Source of the DNA: a virus
Strand: one strand, 5' to 3'
Length of the DNA: 43,070 bases
IMG/VR virus record: IMGVR_UViG_3300045988_050530
Span: 1 to 43,070 of that record
Position numbers and translations under genes: made by a program. This document shows positions 17,981 to 31,877 of the stretch, piece by piece. Within the stretch, counting starts at the first letter, position 1; every line of letters begins with the position of its first letter. The notes beneath the pieces are model-generated. The model was not told where the DNA came from. It saw nothing but the letters and a program-made list of their open reading frames with translations, and made no database searches.

Positions 17981-18010
17981 TGACACGATTTCACACGAAA
18001 TTTCACACGA
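17981..18010 (+). repeat. Candidate integrase arm-type sites, left arm: TGACACGA / ATTTCACACGA / ATTTCACACGA at 12-bp spacing
   Basis: Direct reading. The same 11-mer pair recurs at 18197-18219, on the other side of the tRNA-derived core. Confidence 0.6.
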
Positions 18011-18044
18011 AGAACAAAAAAGCTAGTAAATACAACAGGAATAA

Positions 18045-18072
18045 ATGGGTTCAAGTCCCATCTACCGCACCA
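18045..18072 (+). other. attP core: 3' fragment of a tRNA gene (T-arm ATGGG-TTCAAGT-CCCAT, acceptor 3' strand CTACCGC, discriminator A, CCA)
   Basis: Canonical T-arm/acceptor/CCA read directly. No complementary 5' acceptor strand (GCGGTAG), D-arm or anticodon arm upstream. Integrase gene 140 nt away. Confidence 0.75.
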
Positions 18073-18077
18073 AACAG

Positions 18078-18196: not shown

Positions 18197-18219
18197 ATTT
18201 CACACGGAATTTCACACGG
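18197..18219 (+). repeat. Candidate integrase arm-type sites, right arm: ATTTCACACGG A ATTTCACACGG
   Basis: Direct reading. Overlaps the 3' end of int. An inverted partial copy (CTGTGTGAAC) lies at about 18172-18181. Confidence 0.6.
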
Positions 18220-19327
18220 GCTTTTTGATGGATTCGTAGAGCGCCGCCGTTCCTGCGGCCAGCTCGGCGTTTACGGATTCCTGCCGTTCGTGGAAAAGCT
18301 CGACGTACACCTGATGGGAGAAAGCGGACGTTGAATGACCCATGACGCGGGCAAGCTCTTCTTCGGACGCGCCGGAGTAGGCGACGGACGTTGCAAAAAA
18401 ATGACGCAGATCGTAAAAGCGCATCTTTCCGGGAAGCCCAAGCGCCGCCCTGCATTTTTTCCAGCGGTAGTCAACGAGGTTAGGCTTTAGCGTCAGTATT
18501 TGGGCGTGGTCAGCGCCTCGTGGCTTGCAGTCGTACAAGTTTTGGAAAAAAGACCAGTCGAGACGAAGCGCGCGTTCTCCTGCATCTGTCTTTGTGACGT
18601 TTTTTCTGACGTATGAGCGGGATTCATCGCGCACTGTGGCCTTGTCGATGCTTAAAAGCCCCATTTTGTACGCTTTCCCGTCTCTGCTGATTGCGGAAAC
18701 AGGTTCAGCGGACAGATCGCCCCACGTCAAAGCATACGCCTCAGAAGGGCGCAAGCCCGCGCTCACAATGAAGCAACAATAAAGATAGAAATCCGTTTCC
18801 CAATGCTCTTTGGCGTAGGTCAGCACGTCTCGCGCCCAGCCTTCGGAGAAAAGCTGCTTCTTCGACTTCTTCCTTTTGGCTATGACAATCCCGGACAAAT
18901 TCAAATCAGGCGCATATTTGCCCAAAACAGAGCGCAGAAAGTAAAACTCATTCCGAACCGTTTTCACAGCATGATCTTTAGCCCTTGCGTCAATTGCTTT
19001 TTGGATATCCCGCTCTGTGATTTGATCCAGGCGTAAAGAGACAAGCATCGGAAAGCTGTTTTCCCGTATCGAGACATACGCCGGAATCGTGGACGGCGAA
19101 TAGCCCTGTACACGGCAAGTATCTATAAACTCGTCCATTGCCTGACCGAGCGTCAGCGTTTGCTTCTTCTTCCGCTTGCGATCGGCAGCAGCGACGGCGG
19201 CAAGGCGCTCAGATTCACGGGCGGTCGATGCGGTAAAGGATTCAACGATTGGCTTTCCCGTTGCATCCTTACCGAGGTAAACCTGTGTTCGCCAGTTGCC
19301 GGACGGCAGCTTTTTTGCTTTTGCCAT
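18212..19327 (-). CDS. int: Tyrosine integrase
   Basis: Tyrosine-recombinase motifs: GLRPSEAYAL (Arg), YDLRHFFAT (box II), MGHSTSAFSHQVYVELF (His ... catalytic Tyr). Adjacent to attP. Confidence 0.95.
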   Translation of the reverse strand: MAKAKKLPSGNWRTQVYLGKDATGKPIVESFTASTARESERLAAVAAADRKRKKKQTLTLGQAMDEFIDTCRVQGYSPSTIPAYVSIRENSFPMLVSLRLDQITERDIQKAIDARAKDHAVKTVRNEFYFLRSVLGKYAPDLNLSGIVIAKRKKSKKQLFSEGWARDVLTYAKEHWETDFYLYCCFIVSAGLRPSEAYALTWGDLSAEPVSAISRDGKAYKMGLLSIDKATVRDESRSYVRKNVTKTDAGERALRLDWSFFQNLYDCKPRGADHAQILTLKPNLVDYRWKKCRAALGLPGKMRFYDLRHFFATSVAYSGASEEELARVMGHSTSAFSHQVYVELFHERQESVNAELAAGTAALYESIKKPV

Positions 19328-24732: not shown

Positions 24733-25287
24733 ATGGCAGACGGAAAGCTGGAATTTCGGAAGCTCGAAGCATCCGAAATCGACATCAGAGTTGCGCAGAT
24801 CAACGAAAAAGGCTGTCAGCTCTTGCTTTACAAGGACGCACGGTGCGACATGTGCATCCTTGATGAAACGGTCGGCGCTCTCAACTGGCAGCGCCGTCAC
24901 AACAGGGACAACGCAAACTGCGTCGTCTCCATCTACAATTCGAACCTGAATACTTGGGTCGAGAAGGAGGACACAGGGACGGAAAGCAACACGGAAGCCG
25001 ACAAGGGGCTTGCCTCCGACAGTTTCAAGCGGGCTTGCGTGAACTGGGGAATCGGACGAGAGCTGTACACAGCGCCGTTTATATGGATTCCCGCCGAAAA
25101 AGTAGAAATCAAGCAGAATCGCAGCGGAAAGCCGATGACGTATGACAAATTCGAAGTCCAGAAAATCGCATACGATGACAAGCGGAATATCATCGGCCTA
25201 GCGATTCGGAACGCGAAAAACAAGAAGCTTGTCTTCCTCTGGCAGAAGGAGAACCCGAATGGAGATCACAGCGGGAAAGATCGTTGA
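24733..25287 (+). CDS. Rad52/Sak-type single-strand annealing protein
   Basis: LDETVGALNWQRRH and SDSFKRACVNWGIGRELY motifs typical of Rad52-family phage annealases. I trimmed the track ORF to ATG 24733. Confidence 0.75.
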   Translation: MADGKLEFRKLEASEIDIRVAQINEKGCQLLLYKDARCDMCILDETVGALNWQRRHNRDNANCVVSIYNSNLNTWVEKEDTGTESNTEADKGLASDSFKRACVNWGIGRELYTAPFIWIPAEKVEIKQNRSGKPMTYDKFEVQKIAYDDKRNIIGLAIRNAKNKKLVFLWQKENPNGDHSGKDR

Positions 25288-25921
25288 CGTTGTTGATGGC
25301 GGCTTGGTGGTCTTCGTCCCATACGGCGATATGGAGAAGATCATCAAGCGCCAATACAACGAGGTACAGGTTGGCTTGCCGGACGGGCGAAGAATCAGCC
25401 CGGAGCAGCGCCGCAAGGCTTATGCTCTGATGGGCGAGATTGCGGAGGCGGTCGGCTACGAAAAGGACGAGATCAAGGACGTGATGAAGCATGATTTCGT
25501 TTCAAACCACCTCCAACAGCTCGAAAAAGAGCTGTTCAGCCTGTCAGACTGCGACGTAACGACGGCGAAGGAGTATATCAGCTATTTAATTGACTTCATC
25601 CTCCGAAACGACATTCCGACACATGTACCGCTGATCAAGCTGGCGGACGACATTGACCGATACGTGTACGCTTGTCTGATGCGGAAAAAGTGCTGCATCT
25701 GCGGACAGAAGGCGGATTTCCACCATGTGGACGCGGTCGGCATGGGAAACGACAGGGACGAGGTGCAGCACATCGGTCGGAAATGCTTGCCCCTATGCCG
25801 CGCTCATCACGTCGAAATCCACACGATAGGCACAACGGAGTTTTGCAACAGATACCACATACGCCCGCAAATCTGTGATGAGAAAATCGCCAAGGTTTAC
25901 AGGCTCAGAAGCAAGGGCTAA
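25259..25921 (+). CDS. HNH-like / DUF968-like Cys-His metal-binding protein
   Basis: AAGGAG RBS. KKCCICGQKADFHHVDAVGMGNDRDE...CLPLCRAHHVEIH motif. Confidence 0.65.
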   Translation: MEITAGKIVDVVDGGLVVFVPYGDMEKIIKRQYNEVQVGLPDGRRISPEQRRKAYALMGEIAEAVGYEKDEIKDVMKHDFVSNHLQQLEKELFSLSDCDVTTAKEYISYLIDFILRNDIPTHVPLIKLADDIDRYVYACLMRKKCCICGQKADFHHVDAVGMGNDRDEVQHIGRKCLPLCRAHHVEIHTIGTTEFCNRYHIRPQICDEKIAKVYRLRSKG

Positions 25922-26258
25922 ACCCTTGCACATGGTGCGCAGCTCAGGAGAGCAACCGCGTGACGTAAAGCGGCGTTACGCGATAAGTGGCGGCTCGATA
26001 CCGCCGCGCGCCGAGCAGCAGGAGAAATCCATGTTTTGTAACAAGCACCCCCCGCTTGAAACGGTACAGCCCACAGAAAGGAGGACACAGGGCAGGCAAA
26101 TTCACACACACTGGCGGCTCGGAAAGACGAGCAAAAGACCAACAACAATAGGCTCAAAAGGTTTGGGCAACGCACATTTTTTCTGACAGCCGGAAAGACG
26201 GCAAATAAAAAGACGTTTCACAAACGGCCTGCCGTCGGGCTAAAACGGCGGCACTCAT

Positions 26259-26390
26259 GGCAAGCATGGAAGGCATCGCGCGGGTGCAACACCCCCCCTA
26301 TTCGTCAAGGTTTCTTCCTTTCCTTCCGTTCTTACAAGATTGACGCGAAGCACCTTGCCCACGCGCCCGGTTCGATTCCGGGGCTTGCCA
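26259..26390 (+). ncRNA. tRNA-like element: canonical T-arm + acceptor 3' strand (26366-26390), with its perfect 7-nt complement 132 nt upstream; not a canonical tRNA
   Basis: CCCGG-TTCGATT-CCGGG followed by GCTTGCC-A. GGCAAGC at 26259-65. No standard D or anticodon arms could be drawn by hand. Confidence 0.3.
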
Positions 26391-26418
26391 CAATTTTACA
26401 ACCAGAAAGGAGAACCTC

Positions 26419-27210
26419 ATGCTCGATTACTTAAAAATTTTTCCGGAGTTTGAGACGATGCTCAGGCGATATACGGACGAAGAGCGCGGTCGGCTTTTTA
26501 TGGCCATGATGGCCTATGCGTATCGCGGCGAAGAGCCTGATTTCGATGAGGACGCGCACGAATGGTACATCTGGGACACGATCAAGCTAAAGATTGACCA
26601 GTGCGCCGAAACGCTCGAATCCAAGCGAGCGAGCGGGAAGAAGGGCGGAAGCGCCAAGCAGACCGAAGCAGACGCAAGCAAGGCGAACCAAAGCGAAGCA
26701 GAGGAAAGCAACGTCAAGCACATTGAAGCAGACGCAAGCACACCGAAGCAAACGGAAGCAGAAGCAAGCAAAGCCAAGCAGACCGAAGCAGACGAAAGCA
26801 AAGCCGACATATATAAGAATAAGAATAAGAATAAGAATAAGAATAAGAGTAGTAGTAGTTACGTACCCCCTACCCCCTACGACGACATCGGCGACGACGA
26901 ACTGCTGCGACTGCGGCAGGAACAGCAGGACGTGGAGACAGCCGCAAGGCGTGTCGGCTTGCCTGTCAGCGCTGCTGGCGACTATGACACCATGGACAAC
27001 CTACGCGCGGAGCATGGAGCGGACAATCTGCTCAAGGCCATATCCCGGATTCAGGGCGCGACCGAGAAAAGCCGAGACTGGCGGTATATCTCCGGGATTC
27101 TCCGCAAAGAGAAAGCATCCGGCTACACATGGACGGAAAAACCGCCGAACGCATCAGGAGGGATAAACTATGAACGACCCGAGCCAAGAAGCCACACGCG
27201 CGATCTCTGA
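26419..27210 (+). CDS. Replisome organizer (DnaD/DnaB-C-like replication initiation protein) with internal repeat region
   Basis: AAAGGAG RBS. C-terminal SRDWRYISGILRKE, a DnaD-like W..I.GIL motif. Overlaps the helicase gene start. Confidence 0.7.
   Translation: MLDYLKIFPEFETMLRRYTDEERGRLFMAMMAYAYRGEEPDFDEDAHEWYIWDTIKLKIDQCAETLESKRASGKKGGSAKQTEADASKANQSEAEESNVKHIEADASTPKQTEAEASKAKQTEADESKADIYKNKNKNKNKNKSSSSYVPPTPYDDIGDDELLRLRQEQQDVETAARRVGLPVSAAGDYDTMDNLRAEHGADNLLKAISRIQGATEKSRDWRYISGILRKEKASGYTWTEKPPNASGGINYERPEPRSHTRDL
26651..26800 (+). repeat. 15 consecutive 10-bp units NNNNNAAGCA (14 exact AAGCA, one AACCA) inside the organizer gene
   Basis: Direct reading: gcgccAAGCA gaccgAAGCA gacgcAAGCA ... 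gacgaAAGCA. The protein-level period is 30 bp (KQTEADASKA-type decapeptides). Confidence 0.95.
26815..26859 (+). repeat. AT-rich microsatellites (AAGAAT)x5 + AAGAGT, then (AGT)x4
   Basis: Direct reading. Encodes KNKNKNKNKNK SSSS. Preceded by ACATATAT. Confidence 0.95.
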
Positions 27211-28417
27211 GCGGGCTTTTTGCGGCGCGATCATCAGGGGCGACACCAGAGCGACGGACGCGGGGCTGAAAGCCGATTGGTTCACCGTGCCCGTTTGCCG
27301 ACGTATATTCTCGGCGGCGCTGGCGATTGAGAGACAGGGACGGCCTTGCGACCTTGCGACGCTCGAAGAGATTCTTAGCGATGACGATCTCCACGAGGCA
27401 ATCACCATCGCGGCGGAGACCGTCACGACGGCGCTTGCAGACCAGCAGGCGGACAACATCCGCCTCGCGGCAATGCGCAGGGAGATCGTCAAAACATGCC
27501 TAGAGACAGCGCGAACGGCGAACGAGGGCGAAATATCGACGACAGAGCTGCTAGACGGCGCTGTGATGCGATTAAATGCGCTCAGCGGACAAACAGACGA
27601 CTGCGGTGTAATCAGCGGCACAGACGCGATTTGCGGCTTCTACGCGCGACTGACAAGCGGAGCGGTCGAGCCGGTCACAAAGACGGGCTTTCCCAAGCTC
27701 GACAGGGCGCTGATGATTGCGGGCGGAAAACTGATCGTCGTCGGCGCGAGGCCGTCGGTCGGCAAGTCTGCGTTTCTGCTGCACCTTGCGGTTAAGGCGC
27801 TGGACGTTGGCCGGAAAATCCTGCTGGTATCGTGCGAGATGGGCGCGGATGAGATCGTCGGGCGAATCGTGGCGCAGAAAAGCCGCGTATCGTCTGACAA
27901 GATCGAGCGTCACGAACTGGACGACAGCGAGATTGTCAAAGTAGCGGAGAGTTTCGCGGAAATCCCTTCCGAGCAGCTTTTTATCAGCGAGAGGGCGCGA
28001 ACCGTGCGCGACATAAGGCGCATGGCGCTAAGAATCCGCGCGAGATGCGGGCTGGATATGATCGTCGTCGATTACTTGCAGCTTCTCGACGCGGGGCAGA
28101 AGACGAGCAACCGCTCGGAGGCGGTCGGCGTTGTCACGCGGGCACTTAAATCGCTGGCGATGGAGCTTAAAATCCCGATCCTGACCGCAAGCCAGCTCAA
28201 CCGTGCAAGCGAGCGCAACGACGCGCCGAGGCTCTCCGATCTGCGCGAATCCGGCAGTATCGAGCAGGACGCGGACGCGGTGCTTCTTCTCCACGCGCCG
28301 GACGACAAGGACAACCCGGAAAGGCTGCTGTTCCTCGACAAAAACCGAGGCGGAGAATGCGGGAAAATCAGACTGTATTTTGACGGCGCGACCATGAGAT
28401 TTTCTGAAATGCAATGA
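27170..28417 (+). CDS. dnaB: DnaB-family replicative helicase
   Basis: Walker A GARPSVGKSAF, MIVVDYLQLL, SQLNR and SDLRESGSIEQDAD motifs. Confidence 0.9.
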   Translation: MNDPSQEATRAISERAFCGAIIRGDTRATDAGLKADWFTVPVCRRIFSAALAIERQGRPCDLATLEEILSDDDLHEAITIAAETVTTALADQQADNIRLAAMRREIVKTCLETARTANEGEISTTELLDGAVMRLNALSGQTDDCGVISGTDAICGFYARLTSGAVEPVTKTGFPKLDRALMIAGGKLIVVGARPSVGKSAFLLHLAVKALDVGRKILLVSCEMGADEIVGRIVAQKSRVSSDKIERHELDDSEIVKVAESFAEIPSEQLFISERARTVRDIRRMALRIRARCGLDMIVVDYLQLLDAGQKTSNRSEAVGVVTRALKSLAMELKIPILTASQLNRASERNDAPRLSDLRESGSIEQDADAVLLLHAPDDKDNPERLLFLDKNRGGECGKIRLYFDGATMRFSEMQ

Positions 28418-29273: not shown

Positions 29274-29573
29274 ATGCTGAACGAATTGCGCGATGAGATT
29301 TACAGTGATGCGGTGGCACATGGGCTGTGGGATTGCCTTGAAATCGGCGAAGCGGGCGATGTAATAAAAAGGCTTTACTGTTCGCGGCTCATCAGCGACG
29401 AATTGACGGAAACCATCAAGGCTGTGCACGAGCCGGAACATTACACCGAAGAGCTGGCGGACGTTATCATCACGGCACTGTCCGTCGCCGGATATCTGGG
29501 CATCGACATTGACAAAGCGGTGCGGGCGAAGATGGAGATCAACCGAGGGCGTGAATGGAGGCACGGGAAATGA
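29274..29573 (+). CDS. MazG-like nucleoside triphosphate pyrophosphohydrolase
   Basis: EELADVIITALSVAGYLGIDIDKAVRAKMEINRGR matches the MazG/all-alpha NTP-PPase pattern. Confidence 0.7.
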   Translation: MLNELRDEIYSDAVAHGLWDCLEIGEAGDVIKRLYCSRLISDELTETIKAVHEPEHYTEELADVIITALSVAGYLGIDIDKAVRAKMEINRGREWRHGK

Positions 29574-30505
29574 GCCTTATCGAGTATGACCTTTTCGGGC
29601 AAAAGCGGGACAAGGTGCAGACGGCGATAGACCGGCTGCGGACGTTTGAGCCGGAAGATGGGTACTATGTCGCGGACAGCGGCGGGAAAGACAGCTCATG
29701 TGTCGTCAAGCTCTGCGAGATGGCAGGGGTTAAGTTTGATGCGCACTACAACGCGACGACGATTGACCCGCCGCAGCTTGTACGCTTCATCCGGCAGCAT
29801 CACCCAGAAACAGAAATCGAAAAGCCTGAGTATACCATGCGAGAGCTGATTGTCAAAAAGCAAATGCCGCCAACGAGATTGATGCGCTACTGTTGCCAAC
29901 ACCTCAAAGAGCTGCACGGTCAAGGGCGTGTCGTGGTTACGGGCGTAAGGTGGGCGGAAAGTGGAAACCGCAAGAACAACCAAGGGCTTGTGACTTTTGC
30001 AACAGCGTCCAAAGAGCTAAACAACACAGCGGATTTGAGCGGCGCAGAGCCGAAACGGACAAGCAAAGGTGGGTTGATACTCAATACCGATAACGACGAG
30101 AGCCGCAGAATGGTTGAGATGTGCTATCGGACACACAAAACGCTTGTCAATCCGATTATTGACTGGACGGACGAAGACGTGTGGGAGTTCGTACGGCTCT
30201 ACAACGTACCGTACTGCGAGCTGTACGATTGCGGATTCAAACGGCTTGGCTGCGTGGCCTGTCCGCTTGGCGGCTCTGCGAGCATGCAAAGAGAGCTTGA
30301 GTTTTTCCCGCAGTTTAAGAAATTTTACATCCGCACTTTTGACGAGATGCTGGACGCAAGAAGAAAAGCGGGAAAATCCATCAATAGGCATTGGACGGAC
30401 GGTGAATCGGTCTTGCGCTGGTGGGTAGGGAAAGGCGGAGAAAGCAAAGACGAGTTGCAACTTGAGATTTTTGATGAAACGGAGGAAATGACCGATGAAA
30501 TGTAA
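29570..30505 (+). CDS. PAPS-reductase-family PP-loop protein
   Basis: PP-loop YVADSGGKDSSCV. C-terminal Cys cluster CGFKRLGCVACPLG. ATGA overlap with the MazG-like gene. Confidence 0.8.
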   Translation: MSLIEYDLFGQKRDKVQTAIDRLRTFEPEDGYYVADSGGKDSSCVVKLCEMAGVKFDAHYNATTIDPPQLVRFIRQHHPETEIEKPEYTMRELIVKKQMPPTRLMRYCCQHLKELHGQGRVVVTGVRWAESGNRKNNQGLVTFATASKELNNTADLSGAEPKRTSKGGLILNTDNDESRRMVEMCYRTHKTLVNPIIDWTDEDVWEFVRLYNVPYCELYDCGFKRLGCVACPLGGSASMQRELEFFPQFKKFYIRTFDEMLDARRKAGKSINRHWTDGESVLRWWVGKGGESKDELQLEIFDETEEMTDEM

Positions 30506-31001: not shown

Positions 31002-31877
31002 ATGAAAAAGGTTTGCACTATTATTTCTGTTTTGATTGTCGCAGTTGTTATCGCTTTTTCCTGCGCGGATTCCGCGTCTGCAACGACAATTAAAGAAGGA
31101 TATGTCGGCATTGTCTTAAATTGGGGTAAGGCTGAAGCTGATGTTTTGACACCCGGCTTCTACGTCATTCCTCCGTGGAAATCGGTAGTCAAAATGGATT
31201 GCCGCTGGCAGAAATATGAGGTGGTTTGTTCGGCGTTCAGCAAAGATATTCAACAAGTTGACATCAAAATGACCTGCAATTATAAACTGTCAGAAGATGG
31301 AGCAAGACGTATTTATTCACAGGTTGGCGAGGATTACGGCAGTAAAATCATGGAGCCGTGCATCCTGGATGCAGTGAAAGCTGTTTTCTCAAAATATACG
31401 GCAGAAGAATTGATTTCTGAACGAGGAATCATTTCTAGCGAAGTTTATGAAACTATTTATTCAAAAATGGAAATCTATGATGTAAAAATCAAAGATGTCG
31501 CCATTACGGATATTGATTTTTCTGATGCCTTTACCGACGCAGTGGAAGCTAAACAGGTTGCCACGCAGAAGAAACTGCAAACGCAGACCGAACAGGAGCA
31601 GCAGACCATCATTGCCGAGGCCGAAGCAGAACGTGAAAAAATTAAGGCACAGGCTGATGCAGAAAAAAAGAAGATCGCGGCTGAGGCCGATGCGGAAGCA
31701 GTTAGGATTCAAGCTGACGCAGAAAGTTATCGCCTTGAAGTAGAATCGAAGAACATTACGGACAAAGTGATCCAGAAAGAATACATTAAAAAGTGGAATG
31801 GTCAGCTGCCGATTATCAGCGGAGACAGCGCAACGCCGATTGTGAATATGACCGAATTGTTGAATGGTGAAAAATAA
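31002..31877 (+). CDS. SPFH / band-7 (prohibitin/HflC-like) membrane protein
   Basis: N-terminal anchor VCTIISVLIVAVVIAF. Band-7 core (IKEGYVGIVLNWGK, PGFYVIPPW, DVKIKDVAITDIDFSDAFTDAVEAKQVA). A/E/Q coiled coil. The gene is visibly AT-richer than its neighbours. Confidence 0.85.
   Translation: MKKVCTIISVLIVAVVIAFSCADSASATTIKEGYVGIVLNWGKAEADVLTPGFYVIPPWKSVVKMDCRWQKYEVVCSAFSKDIQQVDIKMTCNYKLSEDGARRIYSQVGEDYGSKIMEPCILDAVKAVFSKYTAEELISERGIISSEVYETIYSKMEIYDVKIKDVAITDIDFSDAFTDAVEAKQVATQKKLQTQTEQEQQTIIAEAEAEREKIKAQADAEKKKIAAEADAEAVRIQADAESYRLEVESKNITDKVIQKEYIKKWNGQLPIISGDSATPIVNMTELLNGEK

Follow-up and report, generated by a model that had tools for sequence, protein, structure and literature searches.

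Viral mimics of transfer RNA (tRNA) are well studied in RNA viruses and, in DNA phages, are known chiefly from a small set of proteobacterial immunity RNAs. The tRNA-maturation machinery also processes RNAs that carry tRNA-like ends but do not decode, such as the 'species 1/2' RNAs of phage T4 and tRNA-Other of Bacillus cereus, the functions of which are regulatory or unknown, and the CI RNA of phage P4 is a substrate of ribonuclease P (RNase P). The C4 antisense RNA of phages P1 and P7 is presented as a non-tRNA substrate of RNase P in two reviews (PMC4919922, PMC11143913). Here we analyze a 43,070-nucleotide (nt) stretch of viral DNA, IMG/VR record IMGVR_UViG_3300045988_050530 (the window, always taken at its full length), which represents the excised genome of a temperate phage. 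Between the genes for an HNHc_6 nuclease and a DUF6291 replisome organizer, the window contains a conserved block (positions 25911 to 26390) that very probably represents a functional structured RNA with two tRNA mimics. By mode of action, the nearest described systems are the C4/CI RNAs, organellar tRNA punctuation, the tRNA-like domain of transfer-messenger RNA (tmRNA) and pseudo-tRNAs, and by genomic address, the ROOL and GOLLD RNAs; the element described here appears to be a virus-encoded tRNA-mimicking structured RNA that does not qualify as a member of any of the nearest known families.

Conservation and base pairing of the block

Relatives of the block were collected from IMG/VR, using the organizer protein and DNA patterns, and from metagenomes, using one pattern. 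The block was found in about 45 IMG/VR contigs and at least about 45 metagenome contigs, nearly all of them from the human gut, and these copies collapse to at least about 55 distinct sequences, which form about four clades (A, B, C and D). Among the relatives, the DNA of the block is 72-97% identical, compared with 54-100% for the organizer proteins; the last 49 nt at the 3' end are near-invariant although the neighbouring proteins drop to about 60% identity. The conserved stretch opens at the hairpin that starts at 25911 and closes exactly at the discriminator nucleotide 26390, whatever the flanking genes are: the gene upstream encodes, depending on the contig, an HNHc_6 nuclease, a RecT-like protein, SSB or an XRE-type regulator, and the gene downstream always encodes a replisome organizer, which comes in two N-terminal types and with differing partner genes. 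Given that the flanking genes vary, that the ends of the block are fixed and that open reading frames (ORFs) within it are not kept (see below), the block is, judging from the sequence comparison, a discrete non-coding module at a mosaic boundary.

The structure was assessed on an alignment of 49 distinct full-length copies of the block (A1), on which 71 pairs in 12 helices were counted, with 3' partners slid by 1-3 columns and 500 shuffles as controls. Standard pairing was observed in 96.0% of 3434 cells, compared with 34-45% for slid partners, and 20 pairs were changed on both sides, compared with 3-7 in the slid controls; none of the 500 shuffles attained the observed values. Because G.U cells (254) greatly outnumber A.C cells (18), the plus strand is the one that folds. 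Unguided RNAalifold prediction on the same alignment recovered two acceptor-type long-range helices, the T-arms and several hairpins, that is, the same helices as in the counted structure. Taken together, the alignment and its covariation support the central suggestion of a preliminary description of this DNA, namely a large structured RNA with a tRNA-like terminus, and the block would accordingly be read as a non-coding plus-strand RNA of roughly 480 nt. Its conserved helices form two units, each with a GC hairpin followed by a tRNA mimic, and a variable array of GAAAGA-loop hairpins separates the units. The features, all on the plus strand, are as follows.

25911-25929, plus strand: leader hairpin 0 (GCAAGGG-CUAAA-CCCUUGC), which overlaps the upstream gene's stop codon and opens the conserved block
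25934-26013, plus strand: module 1, an 80-nt tRNA-like cloverleaf with discriminator G26013 and no CCA
25934-25940 with 26006-26012, plus strand: acceptor stem of module 1 (GGUGCGC/GCGCGCC), with U3.G70
25942-25953, plus strand: D-like hairpin of module 1 (GCUC-AGGA-GAGC)
25957-25982, plus strand: long arm of module 1, 9 bp, 8-nt loop UAAAGCGG, in the place of the anticodon arm
25989-26005, plus strand: T-like arm of module 1 (GGCGG-CUCGAUA-CCGCC), 5 bp
26117-26132, plus strand: GAAAGA-loop hairpin copy 1 (GCUCG-GAAAGA-CGAGC), with CUGGCG before it; helix 6, 99.6% paired
26189-26202, plus strand: GAAAGA-loop hairpin copy 2 (GCCG-GAAAGA-CGGC); helix 7, 99.0% paired
26231-26252, plus strand: leader hairpin 2 (GCCGUCG-GGCUAAAA-CGGCGGC), 6 nt 5' of module 2
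26259-26390, plus strand: module 2, 132 nt, with discriminator A26390
26259-26265 with 26383-26389, plus strand: acceptor stem of module 2 (GGCAAGC/GCUUGCC), 7 bp
26266-26276, plus strand: mini D-hairpin of module 2 (AUG-GAAGG-CAU), alternating with AUA...UAU in relatives
26277-26286 with 26356-26365, plus strand: long-range stem of module 2, enclosing a 69-nt CU-rich insert
26287-26355, plus strand: CU-rich insert of module 2, 69 nt here and 69-95 nt across relatives
26343-26360, plus strand: near-invariant sequence ACGCGAAGCACCUUGCCC at the insert of module 2
26366-26382, plus strand: canonical T-arm of module 2 (CCCGG-UUCGAUU-CCGGG)

An alternative to a functional RNA is that the block comprises the decaying, functionless relics of two phage tRNA genes, conserved as a homologous 'linker' for swaps of recombination and replication modules. 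The flanking genes on both sides are indeed swapped exactly at the ends of the block, neither module is detectable as a tRNA, and the internal hairpin region shows both deletions and expansions. However, compensatory substitutions keep all helices paired, unlike in neutral decay, the 3' terminal segment is almost invariant next to much less conserved proteins, and the long arm of module 1, although wholly resequenced in three clades, is still a hairpin with the same loop motif. We consider decay of this kind quite unlikely.

The stop codon of the HNHc_6 gene and the start codon of the organizer gene delimit a 497-nt gap (25922-26418) that had been described as an ORF-free, GC-rich region of about 500 bp. 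The first part of this description is borne out, with the two flanking genes 497 nt apart and no conserved ORF between them; the second is not, the GC content being 0.551 compared with 0.539 for the window. The genes and signals around the gap are as follows.

25229-25921: HNHc_6 nuclease gene, the upstream neighbour of the gap, with its stop at 25921
26403-26421, plus strand: ribosome-binding site (RBS) and start codon of the organizer gene (CAGAAAGGAGAACCUCAUG), outside the conserved block
26419-27210: DUF6291 replisome-organizer gene, the downstream neighbour of the gap, with its ATG at 26419
27170-28417: DnaB-type helicase gene, next after the organizer gene

Across the relatives, the RBS and start codon of the organizer are always located 12 to about 40 nt 3' of the conserved block, and the leader past 26390 is clade-specific.

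Two ORFs within this region, 25875-26186 (plus strand) and 25918-26175 (minus strand), had been set aside as junk that lacks an RBS. Both exist, neither has a Pfam match, and their frames and ends within the block differ between relatives, so that the verdict on these ORFs stands; the statement on the RBS does not, for ATG 26031 is preceded by a good RBS, AGGAG (AGGAGAAATCCATG at 26020-26033). A small protein-coding gene, such as the 52-codon ORF that runs from this ATG to 26186, thus has to be considered, the more so as AGGAGAAATCCATG is similar to the RBS and start of the organizer itself and the frame stays open to 26186. In most of the close (A-type) relatives, however, the ATG is replaced by ATA, in B- and D-type relatives both RBS and ATG are absent, and the clades differ in reading frame; furthermore, the public gene calls for two relatives put no gene in the same gap. 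Because the ATG and RBS are not conserved, the small ORF is rejected, and we assign next to no probability to a coding origin of the signal; a conserved small protein gene, which would speak against an RNA, was not seen in the homologs.

A near-copy of the RBS region of the organizer, not followed by a start codon, is located midway through the block (CAGAAAGGAGGAC vs CAGAAAGGAGAAC, at 26074-26086 and 26403-26415, respectively), and this pseudo-Shine-Dalgarno (pseudo-SD) sequence is partly complementary to the CU-rich tract 26310-26322. A switch in which the CU-rich tract would pair with either the purine-rich pseudo-SD (26074-26086) or the real SD of the organizer was considered and dropped as low-complexity complementarity, without support from covariation.

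The two tRNA-like modules and the hairpin array

Each module follows a GC hairpin and the junction CAU/GG, which is kept at both 5' boundaries. Leader hairpin 0 (helix 1) has four complementary stem versions among the clades, the others being GCCGGGG../..CCCGGC, UUGCGGGA/UCCCGCA and GCAGGGG/CCCUGC; two of its pairs are changed on both sides, and its apparent mispairing is partly an alignment shift. In leader hairpin 2 (helix 8), pairing is complete (100%) and three pairs show changes on both sides (GCCGCUG/CAGCGGC and GCUGGCG/CGUCAGC, found in relatives L026 and L029).

When module 1 is folded alone, its minimum free energy structure is the cloverleaf (z -4.19; 0/200 shuffles), and RNAalifold recovers its acceptor stem and T-arm. 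The acceptor stem is 99.7% paired in A1, with compensatory GGCGGUC/GACCGCC in D-type relatives, and position 3-70 varies among U.G, C-G and U-A; the D-like hairpin follows GCUC-AGG(A)-GAGC. The long arm, of 9-11 bp, has unrelated sequences in the A/C, B and D clades and is always a hairpin with an 8-nt loop of the form nnWAGCRG. The T-like loop conforms to NUCGAUA, in which loop position 54 is C or G. The two strong hairpins noted previously at 25957-25982 and 25989-26005 are thus real and conserved, and correspond to the long arm and the T-like arm, respectively; the cloverleaf to which they belong and the GAAAGA hairpin repeats did not figure in the preliminary description.

The 8-nt loop of module 1 and a segment downstream of the module (25964-25975 and 26057-26064; A1 columns 64-72 and 166-172) co-vary, with AAGCGG/CCGCUU in the A/C type and AAGCAG/CUGCUU in the B type. 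Representing one evolutionary event, with the D type lacking the downstream segment, this co-change hints at a tertiary or alternative pairing between the loop and 26057-26064.

Module 2 ends in the T-arm and acceptor strand CCCGG-TTCGATT-CCGGG-GCTTGCC-A (26366-26390) exactly as first described, and the perfect complement GGCAAGC at 26259-26265 turned out to be the actual acceptor partner: in clade C, the stem reads GGCAGAC/GUCUGCC, with two doubly compensated pairs. The long-range stem has three compensated pairs in clade D and a paired G/C insertion in clade B, and in the T-arm, a G-C pair is replaced by U-A in some D-type copies. On an alignment of 23 diverse copies of module 2 (A3), 99.3% of the pairing is retained and seven compensated pairs are spread over all four helices, compared with 0-1 in slid controls. 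The long-range stem takes the place of the local hairpin 26282-26294 that had been proposed, which is not conserved; the comparative data favour 26277-26286/26356-26365. A further candidate pairing, CGUCAA (26303-26308) with UUGACG (26340-26345), was discarded: it is broken by UUAACG variants and absent in clades B, C and D.

Many relatives carry GCUUGCC-N-CCA at the 3' end of module 2, where the window has A-CAA. All variants of the T-loop among the relatives are UUCRAWU or UUCGACU, the D-loops keep GG, and the insert contains a conserved U(UGA/UAA)CG. The T-loop core GGTTCRAWTCC has one exact occurrence in the window, and matches with one mismatch occur at chance level, so that the motif is weak evidence by itself. 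With a covariance model of module 2 (R1), a single copy is detected in the window, at 158.7 bits.

The central region consists of clade-specific sequence and hairpins of the form CUGRC-N-stem-GAAAGA-stem', of which the window has two and the relatives have from zero to six. Six stems were observed (GCUCG, CUUCG, GAUCG, GCCG, GCGG and CCCG), all complementary; copy 2 in the window is preceded by a conserved run of six U (26177-26182) and by CUGACA, and shows a C-G to G-C swap in the D type. Readings of the hairpin array as a CRISPR-repeat mimic or a type III antitoxin were set aside in view of the irregular spacing and the lack of identity between repeat units.

Comparison with described RNA families

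The named candidates of the preliminary description (ROOL, GOLLD, tmRNA, tRNA, a relic phage attachment site and a replication origin) fared worse than its general reading of a large structured RNA with a tRNA-like end, which is supported by conservation and covariation; none of them is supported. Against Rfam 15, the region has no match at the gathering score in a search of the whole window, positions 25700-26600 yield noise only at E<=10, the tRNA model being silent as well, and four divergent relatives together with a natural deletion variant (see below) yield nothing relevant at E<=1. ARAGORN, run on the window and on 27 homologous loci, detects neither a tRNA nor a tmRNA. Rfam 15 does not include this well-supported RNA family.

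With ROOL and GOLLD of Firmicute phages, the element shares a similar size (about 480 nt), a phage location and the character of a large, ornate phage or prophage RNA that is often found beside tRNAs; however, the tRNAs of those families are neighbouring genuine tRNA genes, whereas the tRNA-like modules of the present element are an integral part of it, covary and do not decode, and the Rfam searches of both window and relatives speak against membership.

The likeness to the tRNA-like domain of tmRNA is closer. Module 2 combines a 7-bp acceptor stem, a T-arm, a near-stemless D-loop and a long helix in place of the anticodon arm with an internal insert, and CCA is encoded in many copies. Unlike in tmRNA, however, position 3-70 is C-G in 49/49 sequences (pair 503-673), not the alanine identity pair G3.U70, the discriminator is variable, no pseudoknots can be supported and the module is only 132 nt long. 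A tag frame that would end at U(UGA/UAA)CG was examined and rejected, with indels of 1-2 nt and of 26 nt just upstream breaking any common frame; together with the negative results of ARAGORN and Rfam, this leaves the tmRNA-like candidate without a conserved tag frame. Neither do ARAGORN and the Rfam tRNA model recognize either module as a tRNA. Of the canonical tRNA features, the acceptor/T-stem stack with its T-loop is present in module 2, and in module 1 the stems are present and loop position 54 deviates; a 5-bp anticodon stem with a 7-nt loop is present in neither module.

The C4 (P1/P7) and CI (P4) RNAs (RF01695) are, like the present element, structured phage RNAs within an operon transcript, and the CI RNA is located in the leader of a replication-gene operon, as the block is located upstream of the organizer gene. 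They are released by host RNase P, which for the present element would be an inference. In contrast to the block, with its approximately 480 nt, two acceptor/T-arm mimics and no Rfam match, these RNAs are about 70-80 nt long and pair with sites on the same transcript; RNAduplex searches of the whole window with three conserved single-stranded segments of the block as queries produced antisense targets no better than those of shuffled queries. The acceptor stems of the block are free-ended, unlike those of the bacterial Y RNA YrlA, to which there is no Rfam match either, and no Ro/TROVE gene is present among the annotated neighbours, the window not having been exhaustively scanned for one. On the whole, despite the size, the phage location and the tmRNA-like features of module 2, it is highly improbable that the element is a divergent member of ROOL, GOLLD, tmRNA, YrlA/Y RNA or C4/CI.

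Among systems defined by their processing, tRNA punctuation, as in mitochondria and in MALAT1-mascRNA, similarly involves tRNA-shaped elements between genes or at RNA ends, where cuts by RNase P and RNase Z define the ends; it is known from organelles and eukaryotic nuclei, and for the phage element such processing is inferred. Species 1/2 of T4 and tRNA-Other differ from the block in that they occur in tRNA clusters or stand alone, whereas the block is a composite of two mimics and a hairpin array fixed 5' of an initiator gene.

A blastn search of the INPHARED phage genomes with 25800-26500 as the query ('distant' setting) gave no match, and model R1, applied to about 30 loci of phages in which the HNH or organizer homologs are only distant, found no divergent copies. 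In a full-text literature search, no paper was found that connects tRNA-like elements with replisome organizers. The element may be listed in a 2023 catalogue of phage structured RNAs, which draws about 10,000 candidates from IMG/VR (PMC10690425).

Putative processing and DNA-level alternatives

Both mimics retain a 7-bp acceptor stem on a 5-bp T-stem (a 12-bp stack), a UCRA T-loop facing a GG D-loop and U at position -1, with NCCA encoded in many relatives of module 2, all of them features read by RNase P, RNase Z and the CCA-adding enzyme, and neither mimic has a decoding anticodon arm; the mimics thus appear to have lost the features required for decoding and for discriminator-dependent charging. 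Given that the recognition features are kept and the decoding arm is lost, processing by the tRNA-maturation enzymes RNase P and RNase Z appears, from these sequence features, to be slightly favoured. The best explanation overall, which we hold with about even confidence, would be an operon-embedded RNA that is cut by host tRNA-processing enzymes at both modules. The RNA would most probably be part of the transcript of the early recombination/replication operon of the phage, as suggested by strand and operon context. RNase P would cut at 25933/25934 and 26258/26259, and RNase Z, or 3' trimming and CCA addition, would act at 26013 and 26390. The polycistronic RNA would thereby be punctuated just 5' of the organizer gene, the organizer mRNA would be split from the mRNA of the upstream recombination genes, and stable tRNA-shaped RNAs would be released. 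The GAAAGA hairpins, with their constant loop and CUGRC 5' flank, free stems and variable number, could serve as a platform for an RNA-binding protein. The net role might be post-transcriptional control or uncoupling of organizer expression, tRNA-mimic RNAs acting on host factors, or both; any particular downstream role is less certain than either the structured RNA itself or its processing.

Several observations weigh against such a functional, processed RNA. The family is narrow, and with only about four clades, the compensatory events that can be counted as independent are modest in number, about a dozen rather than 99. Transcription is deduced solely from strand and operon context, with no promoter or terminator detected within the region. 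In one low-coverage contig, a deletion variant (L136:7108-7333, minus strand) has the first ~20 nt of module 1 joined to the region upstream of hairpin 2; it is devoid of the rest of module 1 and of all GAAAGA hairpins and retains hairpin 2, module 2 and the organizer gene, which indicates that parts of the element are dispensable. One relative of the organizer (L027) comes without the element. No phage target is complementary to the conserved single-stranded segments above the shuffled background, and a processing site by itself would not require about 480 nt. Finally, the discriminator varies freely (A/G/U/C) and CCA is not universal, because of which aminoacylation of the mimics is unlikely.

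A different use of the same RNA, which we consider unlikely but worth stating, would be a phage counter-measure: the excised anticodon-less mimics could act as decoys or inhibitors of tRNA-cleaving immune nucleases, CCA-adding or modification enzymes, or EF-Tu, and the GAAAGA array could sponge a host RNA-binding protein. The range of zero to six hairpin copies would then reflect an arms race, by analogy with the pseudo-ToxI expansions in phage phiTE.

Whichever role applies, members of the family, present in dozens of phage contigs from the human gut, combine two tRNA look-alikes that do not decode with a variable hairpin array, fixed 5' of an initiator gene. If an RNA processed by the tRNA-maturation enzymes is the right interpretation, this would be a case of tRNA punctuation of an operon in a bacterial virus and a tractable system for the non-decoding roles of tRNA-shaped RNAs, such as regulation of replication genes, protein titration and evasion of tRNA-directed immunity. 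For annotation, it serves as a warning that tRNA-like 3' ends in phages are not always relics of the phage attachment site (attP).

Three features elsewhere in the window bear on the two remaining explanations, both at the level of DNA.

18045-18073: genuine tRNA 3' end (ATGGGTTCAAGTCCCATCTACCGCACCA, comprising T-arm, acceptor strand and ACCA), located in the gap next to the integrase gene
18212-19327, minus strand: integrase gene
26653-26805: iteron-like array with a 10-nt unit, CAAGCAGACG, in about 14.6 tandem copies, inside the organizer gene

The first of these explanations is a relic or secondary attP core, that is, a captured host tRNA 3' end; the T-arm and acceptor strand at 26366-26390 do resemble the tRNA ends that integrases target. 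In one genome each of 185,579 species, however, the 23-mer of T-arm and acceptor strand (CCGGTTCRAWTCCGGGGCTTGCC) has no exact match, and a looser pattern of the family retrieved from the same genome set unrelated coding matches only, with neither a cellular tRNA nor a prophage copy among them. Conservation extends upstream, the 5' partner of the acceptor strand is in place and covaries, and the integrase gene is 7 kb distant and adjoins a different tRNA 3' end, at 18045-18073, on both sides of which there are TTTCACACG repeats (at about 17989-18012 and 18199-18220). The latter site is, on these features, very likely the attP core of the phage with its arm-type integrase sites. A relic attP at the end of the block is thus contradicted on several counts and largely refuted, and we would grant it hardly any probability.

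The second explanation is a DNA-level origin element, in which hairpins folded in single-stranded plus-strand DNA would serve as a signal for single-strand initiation or primosome loading, or in which the organizer would bind the GAAAGAC repeats. The block is located directly 5' of the organizer and DnaB genes, it contains repeated CGGAAAGACG motifs (only two copies in the gap, a count that is not above chance window-wide) and a T6 run, the number of hairpin copies varies as iteron numbers do, and folded single-stranded DNA tolerates G.T pairs as well. Double-stranded sites, however, need neither covarying stem flanks nor compensated acceptor pairing 125 nt apart; the T-loop, the GG D-loop and the encoded CCA are RNA features that are read by tRNA enzymes; and the hairpins are dispensable in the deletion variant. 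The array inside the organizer gene, which can also be read as 20- or 30-nt units and encodes a linker rich in K/Q/T/E/A, occupies the usual place of such origins and is likely an iteron-type replication origin within the initiator gene. Because the iterons are located inside the organizer gene, the block itself is probably not the origin, and this candidate appears rather unlikely.

Two further observations concern the organizer gene and the region 3' of the replication genes. The organizer gene contains a perfect (ATAAGA)x6 microsatellite (26813-26848) that codes for (NK)n and, differing in length among the relatives, might be a hot spot of slippage. A PAPS-reductase-domain protein (29555-30505) and an SPFH/Band 7 protein (31002-31877) are encoded 3' of the replication genes and have the look of accessory or moron-like functions.

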